Assembly: GCA_964016885.1 (NCBI GenBank)
Contig: OZ024741.1
Coordinates: 310,558,001 to 310,622,000, forward strand
Direction: 5' to 3'
Source: Eledone cirrhosa
Taxonomy: Eukaryota
DNA length: 64,000 nt
Part shown: piece by piece, positions 35,438 through 43,182 of the stretch
Layout of the letters: the number at the start of each line of letters is the position of its first letter
Position numbering within the stretch: position 1 is the first letter of the stretch
Notes under the pieces: generated by a model
Seen by the model: the letters and a program-made list of their open reading frames with translations, nothing else
Told to the model about the DNA's origin: nothing
The model's database searches: none
Program-made: the position numbers and the translations under genes

Positions 35438-35572
35438 CTTCTTGGCAATTGTCACCAATATAACCCGCAGAACATCTATCTGAACATGTTCCACCAAGCC
35501 TGTTACAGTTACTATTGTCGAGACAATGGCATGTTACATTACAAGCAACACCAAATGTTCCTACTGGGCATC
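35438..35572 (-). CDS. EGF exon copy 1 (135 bp, phase 1-1): GCPVGTFGVACNVTCHCLDNSNCNRLGGTCSDRCSAGYIGDNCQE
   Basis: ttttcag/gtatat splice sites, 8 Cys, MEGF10/Draper-type pattern. Confidence 0.9.
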
Positions 35573-36696
35573 CTGAAAATATCAATATATATGATAATGT
35601 TGAAGATATCATTAATTACATACAGATATCAATGATACAATTGTATACGAAATTTTAAGATTAAAGTGGCCTTGGAATAAAGAAATGAACTTGTATACTT
35701 ATTGAATATTATATCGATCCTCTATAATATATACATGGATTTTCAGTTCAGTTAAATGCAATGTTAAAAACATTATGCAAAAAACAAACAATCCAATTTC
35801 ATCAGAAAAGTAACATATATAATCCTACAAAATCTTACCATATTCTATCAGTTCCTTCTTTAAAGGCTTCAACCTCTCTATACAGGTTGAGGCCAACCTG
35901 TCGGTCGTTAATTACCTCGACGTTACCCTCAATTTATCGAATGGCTTGTATTACCCGTATATAAAGCCGAATGATACGCTTAATTCATAGAGAACGTCTC
36001 TATGAACCACCTAATAGAATATTAGTCTACGACTTCTTTTATACCATAGACGTGGTTTTGTCTTTGCGTGTAATTGTTTTTCACCGCTCCAAATAATGAC
36101 GTATTATATTCGTTTTTTCCCGTTCTTTGCCAGGGAACGTTTCCACGAACCAAAGTATCGTCTTGATGTCTTCCTCCGGTTGCAATGTTTTTTGAAATAT
36201 TTACTTCTGCGTTCACAGATTGACTTTGTTAGTTTCAGAAGATCCCGTTAAGGGTGAAAGTAGCGATTCTTTGCTTAAACTTTAATCTGTTATTTTAACA
36301 AATATTGGCTCTACGGTTCATATATATTTGATATATAGTTATCCTTATCGAGCCCTCTTTGGATTTTAGTCTTCAAATTTATTATTATTACCATATATAT
36401 ATATATATATATATATATATATATATATATATATATATATAGAGAGAGAGAGAGAGAGAGAGAGAGAGAAAGAGAGAGAGAGCGAGAGAGAGAGAGAGAG
36501 AGAGAGAGAGAGAGATAGAGATAGAGAGAGAGAGAGAGAGAGAGAGTGAGAGAGAGTAGAATGAGAGAGAGAGAGGGAGAGAGAGATAGAAAAACAGAGA
36601 CAAGAGTGAAAATAAAAATGTTGGCTCTAGCATAGCTTTATACATATAAGTATGTGGAGTTTGGATATCTAGCAATATGCGCTTTGTTTATGTATA

Positions 36697-36863
36697 ATAA
36701 TTGTTTCTATTTTTTGGCACAAGGCCAGCAATAGCCAGTACATTAATGGTACTTTATTTTATCGACCCCGTAAGGATGAAAGGCAAAGTTAACCTGGCGG
36801 GATTTGAACTCAGATCGTAAAGGGACGTAACTATGCTGGAAAGCATGGCGTCCGACCCTCCAC
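36697..36863 (-). mobile_element. SINE, 5'-truncated (paralog at 41080-41246)
   Basis: Reverse complement of the SINE consensus, cut after CGACCCTC. Confidence 0.85.
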
Positions 36864-39084: not shown

Positions 39085-40590
39085 GGCTTCAACCTCTCTA
39101 TACAGGTTGAGGCCAACCTCTTGGTCGTTAATTACCTCGACGTTACCCTCAATTTATCGAATGGCTTGTATTACCCGTATAGAAAGCCGAATGATACGCT
39201 TAATTACATAAGTAAGCATTCTAACCATCCTGCCAGCATAACCAAGAACCTGGTAAGAAATGTTTCTTTGAGGCTTTCCCGTCTATCTACTAACGAGCAT
39301 ATTTTCAACGACCATTCCACATATTACAAATGAAGCTCTTGCTCGGAGTGGATTTGTCAATAAGGTAGCATATACAGAGTACGAGAATAGACCTAGAAGA
39401 AATAGATCCGGACGCATTATATGGTATAACCCACCATATAATATGGAGGTGGCCACACCATTAGCTAAGATCTTTCTCTCCCTTATTATGAAGCATTTTC
39501 CCCCCTACACATAAATATAGTAACATTTTTAATAGAAATACTATTAAAATGTCTTACCCTACGACTCCTAACCTTGCACATAACATCACAGCTTCAAATT
39601 TAGCTAAACTACCTAGCCGTAGGAACACGTGCAACCCTCTAGTTAGTACTAACTGTAATTGTAGGAATCGGGTTGAAACACCCACGTCCCGTAGGGCCTA
39701 CATAGGGTTAACCGCCAATATATTCAAGCAGCGTCTTTACATGCATACCGATTCTTTTCGTTACCCTTTAAGGGAATATGACGTCACTTTCAGCTTATAT
39801 CTGGAGTCTCAAAGAAAACCACACCCAATATAATTTACACTGAGAGATCCTACCTAGGGATAGATCGTATAACGGAAATAAAAGACCATGTGACCTCTGC
39901 GCCGATGAGGCCCTGGAAATACTCTACGCCACAGACCACATCTTAAACAAAAACCGGAGGCAATTTCGGCTTGTAAGCATAAATTGCACAAACTATTCCT
40001 GTATACGTGCGAGTATTTGTATACCTATGGCGAGTGTTTTCGCGTATGCTTGTGTATGTACGTATATGGATGCGTGTATGTATTTATTTAATTTCATTTA
40101 CCTCTGTATTTTATTTACTTTATTTTTAACTCTGAAGCCGAGAATCATTCGGTCTCCTAGTTAGAATTTTAGTCTACGACTTCAGTTATACCATTTACGT
40201 CGTTTTGTCTTTGCGTGCAATTGTTCCCCCCGGTCCACATATAACGTATTATCTTTGTTTTTTTTTCGTTCATTGCCAGAGAACGTCTCTATGAACCACC
40301 TAATAGAATATTAGTCTACGACTTCTTTTATACCATAGACGTGGTTTTGTCTTTGCGTGTAATTGTTTTTCACCGCTTCAAATAATGACGTATTATATTC
40401 GTTTTTTCCCGTTCTTTGCCAGGGAACGTTTCCACGAACCAAAGTATCGTCTTGCTGTCTTCCTCCGGTTGCAACGTTTTTTGAAATATTTACTTCTGCG
40501 TTCACAGATTGACTTTGTTAGTTTCAGAAGATCCCGTTAAGGGTGAAAGTAGCGATTCTTTGCTTAAACTTTAATCTGTTATTTTAACAA
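39085..40590 (+). mobile_element. Naiad-like PLE 3' fragment inside the duplicated unit (paralog 43475-44985, largely deleted in unit 1)
   Basis: YLDVTLNL..YYPYRKPN, WYNPPY, CNCRN, AYIGLT..FKQRL, CDLC..E, CKH. Confidence 0.85.
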
Positions 40591-43047
40591 ATACTGGCTC
40601 TACGGTTCATATATATTTGATATATAGTTATCCTTATCGAGCCCTCTTTGGATTTTAGTCTTCAAATTTATTATTATTACCATATATATATATATATATA
40701 TATATATATATATATATATATATATATATATATATATATATATATATATATATATATATCTCTATATATATATATATATATATATATATAGAAAGAGAGA
40801 TATAGAGAGAGAGAGAGAGAGAGAGATAGAGAGAGAGAGAAAGAGAGAGAGAGAGAGAGCGAGAGAGAGTAGAATGAGAGAGAGAGAGAGAGAGAGAGAG
40901 AGAGAGAGAGAGAGAGAGAGAGAGAGAGAGAGAGAGAGAGAGAGAGAGAGAGAGAGAGAGAGAGAGAGAGAGAAAAACAGAGAGAAGAGTGAAAATAAAA
41001 ATGTTGGCTCTAGCATAGCTTTATACATATAAGTATGTGGAGTTTGGATATCTAGCAATATGCGCTTTGTTTATGTATAATAATTGTTTTATATTTTTGG
41101 CACAAGGCCAGCAATAGCCAGTACATTACTGGTACTTTATTTTATCGACCCCGTAAGGATGAAAGGCAAAGTTAACCTCGGCGGGATTTGAACTCAGATC
41201 ATAAAGGGACGTAACTATGCTGGAAAGCATGGCGTCCGACCCTCCACTGAGTTAAGCTGTGATACATATTTCAATGGCGACAGTGGTCACACTGTTCCGT
41301 GCGCCAGTGTCGTGACATCGTCAGACAGCTTGTTACATAATAAGGTTATGTTTCCGAGGCAATCTAAATTGAATCGACATGGGAACGGACGAAGTGTGTG
41401 CTCTTGGGTTCTTCGTCCATTCCCTGTGAGTACCAATTCACCCCCACCGGTCTGCGCAGGCGCAGGTCCGTAGGAGGTTGACCATTAGCTACCGCAGATT
41501 TTAACGAAATTCGCTTAGTCAGTTTTCCCTCTCAGCCAATGAATGACCCATTCAAGGCCTGTAATATAGCTTACTGCTACCCATCCCGTCAGTGGCTGTC
41601 AGTCGAAAGCCAGTGGGGATGGGAGAGTGTGAGTATCCACAGGTCTGAATACTACCTCTCATTAAGCATGGACAGTATAATTGACCATCAACCTCTAAGA
41701 GAAAATATACTTAATTCTATGTATCATGGTTTGACGGTGGAAGTTATGAATGAGAGTTGGGATTAAAAATTTAAAATCCAAAATCAGAAATCAATTATTA
41801 AATATCAAAAATTAGAAATTAAAAATTAACAATTAAAAATTAATACTTTTCAAGTGGGAATCTGGATTGAGGCGAGTAAAAAAATATGGATTGAAGTGAG
41901 TAAATAATATGCAGAGAGATGTTTAAGTAAGGAGTTTTGAAATGGGTATTAATGTTACGGTTATATTATCTATATACTGAACGATAGTACCGTACAGTAG
42001 AACGGAGGGTAAATTACGGTATGAAAGTAGTATTTAGTCGGGTACATAGCTAGAATTTCCATCACATGGACAGAATCAAATAAAAACGATATAACGTACA
42101 CAAAAGAAAAAAAAACAATTAATGAATAAATGCAAAAACACATAGCGTACATATATGCAAAATGAGATATATGGTCAATATGATTGTCAATTTGTCCATG
42201 TATAGATTGAATTGAGGGGGCTTCTGTTCAAATGCGATTTAGTGCAGGAAAATAGGGGTTTATCTTTGTTTTTGTTTCCGCGTATTTATCCTGCCGAAAG
42301 GTATTATTATGTCCGTCCAGTATCAGGGGTTTCCATACCCATGGAAGGGAGAATTTCCGGGTGTAGCTCGTTGCTGGTTCCTCTGTTCTCCACCATATCG
42401 GTTACATCATAGAGCGCTCAACTAATTGGAGCTAAATATATATATATATATATATATATATATATATATATATATATATATATCCTCAGGTGTTGTTTCT
42501 GCATGATGAATATAAGTGAATAGAGTGCTCAACCGAGGGAGCCAAATAGTAATAATAAATATATATATATATATATATATATATATTAATCCCAGTTTCA
42601 ATCGGAGGTAACAGGGTAAGTATGGAACAAATGACAATTGTAGGGTGTAAATATCACGTTTAATATAGACATGCTTTCTACATACTAGAACTAATTCATT
42701 CAAAGGTAATCACCAGGAAAGCCGTTTCCTGGTGATTTCTTTGGATGAAAAAACTCTAGTCCTGTAGAAGCGATTTCTATATTAAACATCACATTTACAC
42801 ACACACACGCACGCACACACACACACACACACACACACACACACACACACACACACACACACACACACACACACACACACACACACACACACACACACAC
42901 ACACACACACACACACACACACACACGCAAACATATATATATATATATGTGTGTGAGTATATGTGTGTGTATGTGTGTGCGTGTGTCTGCGTGCGTGTGT
43001 GTGTTTGTGTGTGTGTATAGCAAATACGTAAGAAGTTTATGATATAC

Positions 43048-43182
43048 CTTCTTGGCAATTGTCACCAATATAACCGGCAGAACATCTATCTGAACATCTT
43101 CCATTAAGCCTGTCACAGTTACTATTGTCGAGACAATGGCATGTTACATTACAAGCAACACCAAATGTTCCTACTGGGCATT
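43048..43182 (-). CDS. EGF exon copy 3: ECPVGTFGVACNVTCHCLDNSNCDRLNGRCSDRCSAGYIGDNCQE
   Basis: Same splice sites, 135 bp, phase 1-1. Confidence 0.9.

Follow-up and report, generated by a model that had tools for sequence, protein, structure and literature searches.

Three near-identical EGF exons stand in tandem in a 64,000-nt stretch of the Eledone cirrhosa genome (hereafter the window; contig OZ024741.1, positions 310,558,001 to 310,622,000), and a first-pass annotation proposed that they diversify under selection. Do these exons really change faster than neutral, and what kind of gene carries them? Each of the three is flanked by an AG acceptor and a GT donor and lies in its own tandem unit (Table 1).

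Table 1. Features of the window and their positions (position 1 is the first letter of the window).
Feature	Position	Strand	Description
EGF exon copy 3	43048..43182	-	135 nt, phase 1/1, 8 Cys; transcribed first; MEGF10/SCARF/Tie2-type EGF
EGF exon copy 2	38658..38792	-	135 nt, phase 1/1, 8 Cys; without the N11 sequon
EGF exon copy 1	35438..35572	-	135 nt, phase 1/1, 8 Cys; 5 private nucleotide changes
Tandem unit 1	34757..38050	.	~3.3 kb; ~1.07 kb of the retroelement fragment of units 2/3 absent
Tandem unit 2	38051..42437	.	~4.4 kb
Tandem unit 3	42438..45134	.	homology stops near 45134; short stretch back at 50465-50956 past a retroelement
Older membrane-proximal EGF exon	14767..14898	-	132 nt, splice sites intact
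EGF pseudo-exon, broken	55934..56004	-	in-frame stop, interrupted by a (TA)n run, donor absent
Transmembrane exon	7465..7555	-	91 nt, phase 1/2
First cytoplasmic exon (predicted)	3661..3943	-	283 nt; basic juxtamembrane stretch and low-complexity 12-nt repeats

The trio has nine variable sites, eight nonsynonymous and one synonymous, exactly as listed before; likewise, copies 1 and 2 differ at 8/135 nt in the exon and at four sites in about 310 nt of adjoining intron, and copy 2 no longer has the NVT sequon. When whole units are compared with microsatellites masked, the proposed excess of exon over intron divergence holds for copies 1 and 2 (8/135 vs 41/2535, one-sided Fisher's exact test, p=0.003) and for copies 1 and 3 (6/135 vs 15/1108, p=0.02), but not for copies 2 and 3 (4/135 vs 39/2184, p=0.24). 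Eight nonsynonymous sites to one synonymous do not exceed the ~73-78% nonsynonymous expected under neutrality (p=0.26-0.37), and the trio by itself is a weak case for selection. Five of the nine variable sites fall within 17 nt, a borderline clustering (p=0.05). The single-loop hotspot once suggested for them is not borne out in 41 other paralog pairs, where codons 23-28, 6 of the 34 non-Cys codons, hold 49 of 229 amino-acid-changing codons. The Gly26 codon of copy 1 occurs in none of 172 other EGF exons examined. Import of the copy 1 loop from a paralog is unsupported, the nearest exon examined differing at 3/18 nt.

The trio exons are predicted to sit in a gene encoding a signal peptide, a series of EGF repeats, a transmembrane (TM) helix and a basic tail. 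Candidate signal-peptide exons, 64 nt long with an ATG, a hydrophobic core and a phase-1 donor, lie outside the window at C2:310639948 and 310657136, and this exon, called from its hydrophobic core, is intact in 28/30 loci of the family. The frame of the cytoplasmic exon is preserved in all three C2 paralogs that differ in length, and its acceptor is homologous to that of the juxtamembrane exon of a receptor phosphatase (RPTP). Inspection of this exon by eye gave no ITIM/ITAM-like motif; the tail is known from this exon, and no terminal exon or exons could be located. Profile matches to SCARF1 (8hna, E=7.6e-6) and Tie2 (2gy5, E=5e-4) define the EGF type, and the exons group with PEAR1-like and laminin EGF clusters; Pfam matches of single EGF exons fall under the cut-off, and a protein search with a single exon gave one candidate and nothing useful. 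Conserved upstream blocks, considered as further exons, have the appearance of old retroelement DNA. Two runs guessed to be RNA yielded no contigs over the locus, which is not proof of silence; 21 RNA or guessed-RNA runs contained only 6-8% of words.

The gene belongs to a large family. At least 33 TM-exon loci are found in two clusters, at C2 310-315 Mb and C10 25.9-27.3 Mb. Of 40 scored matches each for the TM and the signal-peptide exon, 33 and 39, respectively, lie in these clusters. The EGF-acceptor pattern has 130 exact matches, and 253 EGF-like copies were counted in the 1.34 Mb examined. These tandem clusters contain gene fragments and many broken copies, and gene conversion is evident, for example in one pair with flanks 0.9% different but 22 exon differences. 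The trio exon is present once in the nearest paralog gene and three times here, in agreement with the accordion-like ectodomain proposed earlier.

Diversifying selection, poorly supported by the trio, is found across the family. In 41 disjoint paralog pairs from which the trio was excluded, EGF exons show 265 nonsynonymous (N) changes against 156 expected and 47 synonymous (S) against 44, that is, omega 1.61 (bootstrap 1.27-2.12, p=0.001), with 28 of 35 variable pairs in agreement. With more sequences, dN/dS is above 1, also by maximum likelihood (ML M0, omega 1.75, p=0.0015). Comparison of M2a with M1a gave 2dL=61.5, the test giving a value in 3/6 runs. The N:S tests make no use of introns, and the excess holds in single-change codons alone (N186:S32, p=0.004), once pairs that exceed 12 differences are removed (omega 1.65, p=0.035) and under an intron-derived mutation spectrum, where it is still significant; synonymous changes keep pace with the intron clock (1.06). 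Three subsets do not reach significance: pairs whose introns lie within 6% of each other (omega 1.31, p=0.15), C10 taken alone (p=0.08) and the sub-array at C2 313 Mb (N/expected 0.94). Broken copies gave omega 1.43 and are uninformative as a neutral control because the donor rule misfiled intact exons among them. Invariance of the Cys residues is circular, since eight Cys was the selection filter. The signal-peptide exon shows an excess too (N 46.5 vs 31.4 expected; ML omega 1.63, p=0.18), so part of the excess may be general. Gene conversion, for its part, can exaggerate both the contrast between exons and introns and the outcome of site models. Conversion templated by RNA editing was considered and dismissed, A/G changes showing no excess (EGF 0.26 vs 0.24 expected; TM 0.17 vs 0.175).

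The most extreme signal, stronger than that of the EGF exons, is in the TM exon. In 13 pairs, N is 233 against 38 expected and S 34 against 15 (omega 2.7, p=1e-9); ML M0 gives omega 2.8 (p=6e-5), and single-change codons N90:S9 (p=2e-6). Divergence is 18-20% within the exon but 1.5-6% over the adjoining 240 nt. In the gene of the trio, this exon differs from that of the nearest paralog by eight nonsynonymous and no synonymous changes, with flanks 1.6% different over 995 nt. Among helix changes, 60/77 are from hydrophobic to hydrophobic. Drift within the limits of hydrophobicity is the usual course for a membrane helix, so to find an omega close to 2.8 among paralogous helices is unexpected, and it points to a testable intramembrane interaction. 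A likeness is offered by tetherin/BST2, whose transmembrane domain is under selection from viral antagonists, a case of positive selection inside a membrane helix; tetherin, however, is a single restriction factor or has few copies, whereas here there are ~30 paralogous type I receptors and no antagonist is known.

Where did the family come from? Its EGF, TM and tail exons, together with their intron flanks, match an RPTP gene at C2 257.5 Mb with ~69% nucleotide identity, and the best protein matches of the alignment query are Octopus FTP-EGF-PTP proteins (60-63%), such as the fucolectin-EGF RPTPs of O. sinensis/vulgaris (e.g., XP_036365016.1, LOC115219456), the identity being in the EGF repeats. 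Judged from this homology, the cluster genes evidently arose from a fucolectin-EGF receptor phosphatase, without its lectin and phosphatase parts. Unlike the Octopus RPTPs, they have no fucolectin domain and neither of the two phosphatase domains; their low-complexity tail is expanded and their helix hypervariable. Indeed, 0/72 genome matches of PF00102 (PTP) and 0/5 of PF22633 (fucolectin) fall inside either cluster, and tblastn with fucolectin gave no match in 464 kb. A recent duplicate pair of RPTPs served as a control. Over 1449 nt of ectodomain, 38 codons differ by N and 4 by S changes, with 11 N and 0 S in 171 nt of lectin domain; over 858 nt of TM and cytoplasmic sequence, the counts are 3 (N) and 1 (S), and for the TM exon the pair is too young to inform. 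Shorter Octopus proteins of the cluster build were also sought; the five proteins returned come from bivalves or gastropods or are unnamed, and none is from a cephalopod, which is weak evidence of absence.

The 8-Cys EGF type is common to the cluster genes and to SCARF1/SREC, MEGF10/Draper/CED-1 and Tie2; those are conserved genes, in contrast to the rapidly evolving multigene family here, in which neither an EMI or Ig domain nor a tyrosine signalling tail was found. The closest known system, by likeness of architecture, is the SCARF/MEGF-like clusters of schistosome resistance in Biomphalaria (LG5R subgroup 1A). Snail clusters of this architecture map to schistosome resistance (PMC13712769; PMC12297450) and have in common with the present ones a signal peptide, MEGF10/SREC/Tie2-type EGFs, one TM helix, a small tail of no known domain, fucolectin-EGF-PTP relatives alongside, a tandem arrangement that includes fragments of genes, and the gain or loss of EGFs. 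Mapping to resistance belongs to the snail clusters; in the cephalopod, the RPTP origin is seen at the exon and intron level, and the strength of selection is measured for both EGF and TM exons; the main text of the LG5R paper has 'positive selection' 0 times. In the literature searched, which lay mostly outside the subscription journals, no description of a cephalopod cluster of such build was found.

We therefore regard the trio gene as one of a family of predicted single-pass receptors with an EGF stalk, derived from a phosphatase, whose amino acids change faster than neutral and whose members are probably pathogen-binding receptors or decoys (a probability of about 0.6). Exon anatomy, family size, RPTP homology and the nonsynonymous excess are demonstrated above, and the pathogen-binding or decoy function is likely. 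The triplicated exons would lengthen the EGF stalk of one gene of the clusters; unequal crossover may add and remove symmetric phase-1/1 EGF exons and whole genes by birth and death, and a coevolving parasite or virus may drive the amino-acid changes, as in the snail resistance clusters. Because the catalytic domain is absent, any signal would be relayed by a partner met within the membrane, e.g., the parent RPTPs. Alternatively, the helix may be the target of a pathogen protein. Both possibilities would account for helix residues being under selection while they remain hydrophobic. A bolder version, which we entertain only tentatively, is that 30-50 catalytically empty RPTP derivatives carry a recognition code inside the lipid bilayer, their helices being selected to differ so as to pair with or tune particular receptor phosphatases or to escape intramembrane pathogen antagonists, and the EGF accordion setting reach and ligand surface. 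Gene family, receptor-phosphatase origin and the stronger TM signal go beyond the first-pass annotation. Cephalopod immune recognition is poorly mapped, and the clusters, built like those of snail parasite resistance, are a concrete candidate locus whose origin can be traced exon by exon.

Many paralogs, variable EGF number and distinct helices would also suit a code for cell identity or for self versus non-self (allorecognition, gamete recognition, or neuronal/sucker self-avoidance) with the helix setting cis-pairing specificity; EGF-repeat recognition proteins act in ascidian fertilisation, and protocadherins are expanded in cephalopods. We consider such a code unlikely: the abundance of broken copies is more in keeping with birth and death than with a stable code, the diversifying lectin domain of the parent RPTP fits a foreign glycan ligand, and the closest mapped homologous clusters are parasite-resistance loci (PMC13712769, PMC12297450). 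That positive selection is absent altogether, with relaxed constraint and gene conversion homogenising introns or importing exon patches, is improbable. Conversion-like pairs do exist, TM synonymous divergence is 2.3x the intron clock, and the non-significant EGF subsets and the mild signal-peptide excess fit it; however, relaxation caps omega at 1, far under the TM value, the phosphatase exons are without excess, and against it also stand the intron-free tests and the clock-like EGF synonymous rate.

Two further explanations concern the trio itself. A Dscam-like mutually exclusive cassette, with splicing making the main diversity, would fit the symmetric exons and the broken copies, which must be skipped, and all five annotated O. 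sinensis RPTP isoforms compared with the longest lack EGF blocks of 43-176 aa. These isoforms, however, are skips from an all-EGF form and not a one-of-n choice, related Octopus proteins have EGFs in series (3-13 by strict pattern), and diversity is already distributed over 30-plus genes, making such a cassette quite improbable. Still harder to believe is that the triplication or its differences are an assembly artefact, be it base errors or two alleles of the locus set side by side as a tandem array. The units are just 1.4-1.8% different, as alleles may be, and the array is spanned by no read or contig; yet three distinct units exceed two haplotypes, and unit 1 has its private 1.07-kb deletion. 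At 35572, the letter found in copy 1 alone is supported by short-read DNA contigs (depth ~9-11), which speaks in part against assembly error, the remaining sites being swamped by paralogs, and the family-wide selection result leaves the trio copies out.

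A tandem triplication in the window (C2 310558001–310622000), which comes from a 3.0-Gb genome, has units of 3.3–4.4 kb, each carrying on the minus strand a 135-nt exon with an AG acceptor and a GT donor, in phase 1/1, that codes for an eight-cysteine EGF domain. The three copies vary at nine sites, eight nonsynonymous and one synonymous, as counted in the first-pass annotation, which suggested diversifying selection. With microsatellites masked, one-sided Fisher tests place exon divergence above intron divergence for copies 1 and 2 (8/135 vs. 41/2535, p = 0.003) and copies 1 and 3 (6/135 vs. 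15/1108, p = 0.02) but not for copies 2 and 3 (p = 0.24), and the 8:1 ratio does not go beyond neutrality (p = 0.26–0.37). By itself, the trio is only suggestive of diversification. In a neighbouring paralog (310.40–310.46 Mb) the exon occurs only once, indicating that the triplication is younger than the gene duplication.

Exon phases are compatible with a predicted order of signal peptide, four EGF domains, transmembrane (TM) helix and tail; the final exon or exons of this model were not located. One EGF exon sits between the two signal-peptide exons, possibly alternative first exons, and the neighbouring paralog has a like layout.

Exons of the predicted gene (window positions, except those marked C2, which refer to OZ024741.1)
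Feature	Position	Strand or location
EGF exon, copy 1	35438-35572	-
EGF exon, copy 2	38658-38792	-
EGF exon, copy 3	43048-43182	-
Broken EGF exon	55934-56004	-
Older EGF exon, intact	14767-14898	-
TM exon, 91 nt, phase 1/2	7465-7555	-
Tail exon, 283 nt, basic, low-complexity	3661-3943	-
Two intact signal-peptide exons	C2:310639948 and C2:310657136	upstream, outside window

The gene belongs to a family in two clusters, at C2 310–315 Mb and C10 25.9–27.3 Mb. A genome search with a 28-base pattern gave 130 exact matches; 100 of these were listed, with 53 at C2 310–315 Mb, 44 at C10 25.9–26.9 Mb and three at C2 257–262 Mb. Similarly, 33 of 40 scored TM-exon matches (60 candidates) and 39 of 40 scored signal-peptide matches (52 candidates) fall inside the clusters. 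A 1.34-Mb sample of these contains 253 EGF-like copies, 172 of them passing a strict intactness test; EGF number differs widely between genes, and broken copies are frequent. A plus-strand array at C2 313.1–313.9 Mb holds many recent EGF-exon duplicates, half-exons and lost donors; none of 40 scored TM matches falls there, its EGF pairs show no significant nonsynonymous excess (N/expected 0.94), and it is possibly a decaying or secreted branch. In C10 tail exons at 25910953, 25984343 and 26045098, a 12-nt repeat is read in a different frame, giving Asp-Ser-Gly-Lys-type repeats, and a stop lies about 30 nt upstream of the donor, so that tails are not alike between the clusters.

Intact EGF exons were paired solely by flanking-intron identity, every exon being used once and two pairs with trio copies left out, and expectations were taken from the intron mutation spectrum. 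The 41 pairs have 265 nonsynonymous changes against 156 expected and 47 synonymous against 44 (omega 1.61, bootstrap 1.27–2.12; p = 0.001), with the same direction in 28 of 35 variable pairs and a ratio of 186:32 in single-change codons (p = 0.004). The first observation is real and reaches beyond the trio, and it is these family-wide data, more than the trio, that support diversifying selection. Maximum likelihood on 34 C2 exons agrees (M0 omega 1.75, p = 0.0015; M2a vs. M1a 2dL 61.5, 14 sites above 0.95). The excess is not significant within 6% flank divergence (p = 0.15) or in C10 alone (p = 0.08). Codons 23–28, a loop where five trio changes had seemed to cluster, are not supported as a hotspot (49 of 229 amino-acid-changing codons), and most non-scaffold positions vary. 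Cysteine conservation follows from the eight-cysteine filter and is not independent evidence; scaffold residues outside the filter (G27, G39, H15, G36) seldom change.

An unexpected signal came from the TM helix. Thirteen disjoint pairs have 233 nonsynonymous changes against 38 expected and 34 synonymous against 15 (omega 2.7, p = 1e-9), and maximum likelihood on 13 exons of equal length gives omega 2.8 (p = 6e-5). Ten gap-free pairs have a ratio of 90:9 in single-change codons, and among 77 replacements in the helix, 60 remain hydrophobic. Exon divergence is 18–20% in nine pairs, against 1.5–6% in the adjoining 240 nt, with some bins farther out climbing to 7–14%; between the window exon and its nearest paralog there are eight nonsynonymous and no synonymous changes (flanks 1.6%). 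The signal-peptide exon, also hydrophobic, diverges at just 1.5 times the intron clock (p = 0.18 by maximum likelihood). Editing-templated change was considered for the family, and the absence of an A/G bias counts against it.

The nearest proteins to the EGF domains of the window gene are Octopus fucolectin-EGF-TM-PTP receptor phosphatases (RPTP; 60–63%), and such a gene is present at C2 257.5 Mb. Its EGF, TM and juxtamembrane exons match the window gene at about 69% of nucleotides, intron flanks included, and its tail acceptor is homologous to that at 3943. None of 72 genome matches to the PTP domain and none of five to fucolectin lies in the clusters; tblastn across 464 kb found no fucolectin either. 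Judged from this homology and these absences, the family is a truncated RPTP derivative, and since the full form is widespread across molluscs, the change probably ran from full to truncated.

This RPTP (257.50–257.65 Mb) has a nearly identical partner at 261.73–261.87 Mb, with introns about 0.4% apart, either a very recent duplicate or an allele. The 1449-nt ectodomain has 38 amino-acid-changing and four silent codons (flanks 45/7588), or 35 and three without one EGF possibly matched to its neighbour; the lectin and EGF head of the parent thus diversifies too. The second fucolectin exon (171 nt; 11 and none) is a strong signal of its own, for paralogs or alleles alike.

Our preferred explanation of the exon anatomy, family, homology and excess amino-acid change directly observed here, with a probability of about 0.6, is a pathogen-coevolving receptor or decoy family with an EGF accordion. 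Symmetric EGF exons would be gained and lost through unequal crossover, and coevolution with pathogens would drive amino-acid change; having no catalytic domain, the proteins may work as decoys or partner-using receptors, whose helix would contact such a partner, or an antagonist, within the membrane. The architecture is already of a known kind, as it is shared by Biomphalaria systems: in PMC13712769, LG5R comprises clusters of SCARF-like receptors, subgroup 1A being built as here and 1C being the lectin-PTP form, and PMC12297450 describes many MEGF/RPTP paralogs in B. sudanica SudRes1, with loss of EGF in one resistant snail. A literature search, supplements outside its scope, found no cephalopod instance, exon-level derivation or positively selected helix.

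That the same variation serves as a self-recognition code is doubtful, though worth weighing. Neutral processes with gene conversion are an improbable source of it. Synonymous divergence is raised in TM exons, which suggests that their flanks are also homogenised by conversion, and PMC8830517 offers general context on concerted evolution; a broken-copy control, mixed with intact exons, gives an uninformative omega of 1.43. The EGF excess persists with 12 conversion-like pairs removed (p = 0.035). Mutually exclusive splicing of the symmetric exons is less probable still; annotated O. sinensis RPTP isoforms omit EGF blocks, so by analogy cassette skipping is plausible in the window gene. An assembly artefact is hardly credible. 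As a control for the method, the TM and cytoplasmic cores of the RPTP pair (858 nt) have three amino-acid-changing codons and one silent (flanks 18/6999), indicating that not all exons are inflated, though the TM of this pair, which is unchanged, is too young for a firm contrast with the cluster helices.

Elsewhere in the window, a retroelement at 46366–49831 (-), with RT-like and GIY-YIG matches, is presumably Penelope-like, and a 640-nt direct repeat borders it (45128–45765 and 49826–50458). Further RT-like ORFs lie at 16952–19780 (+) and 33608–34804 (-). A 576-nt direct repeat of 100% identity (21546–22121 and 22139–22714) was duplicated either very recently in the genome or only in the assembly. 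Near-perfect long inverted repeats at 13517–14243, 6228–6723 and 23504–23937, with arms of 207–359 nt spaced by 9–52 nt, resemble MITE or foldback elements, and tandem arrays occupy 15270–16299 (320-nt unit, 3.2 copies) and 58093–59667 (466-nt unit, 3.4 copies).
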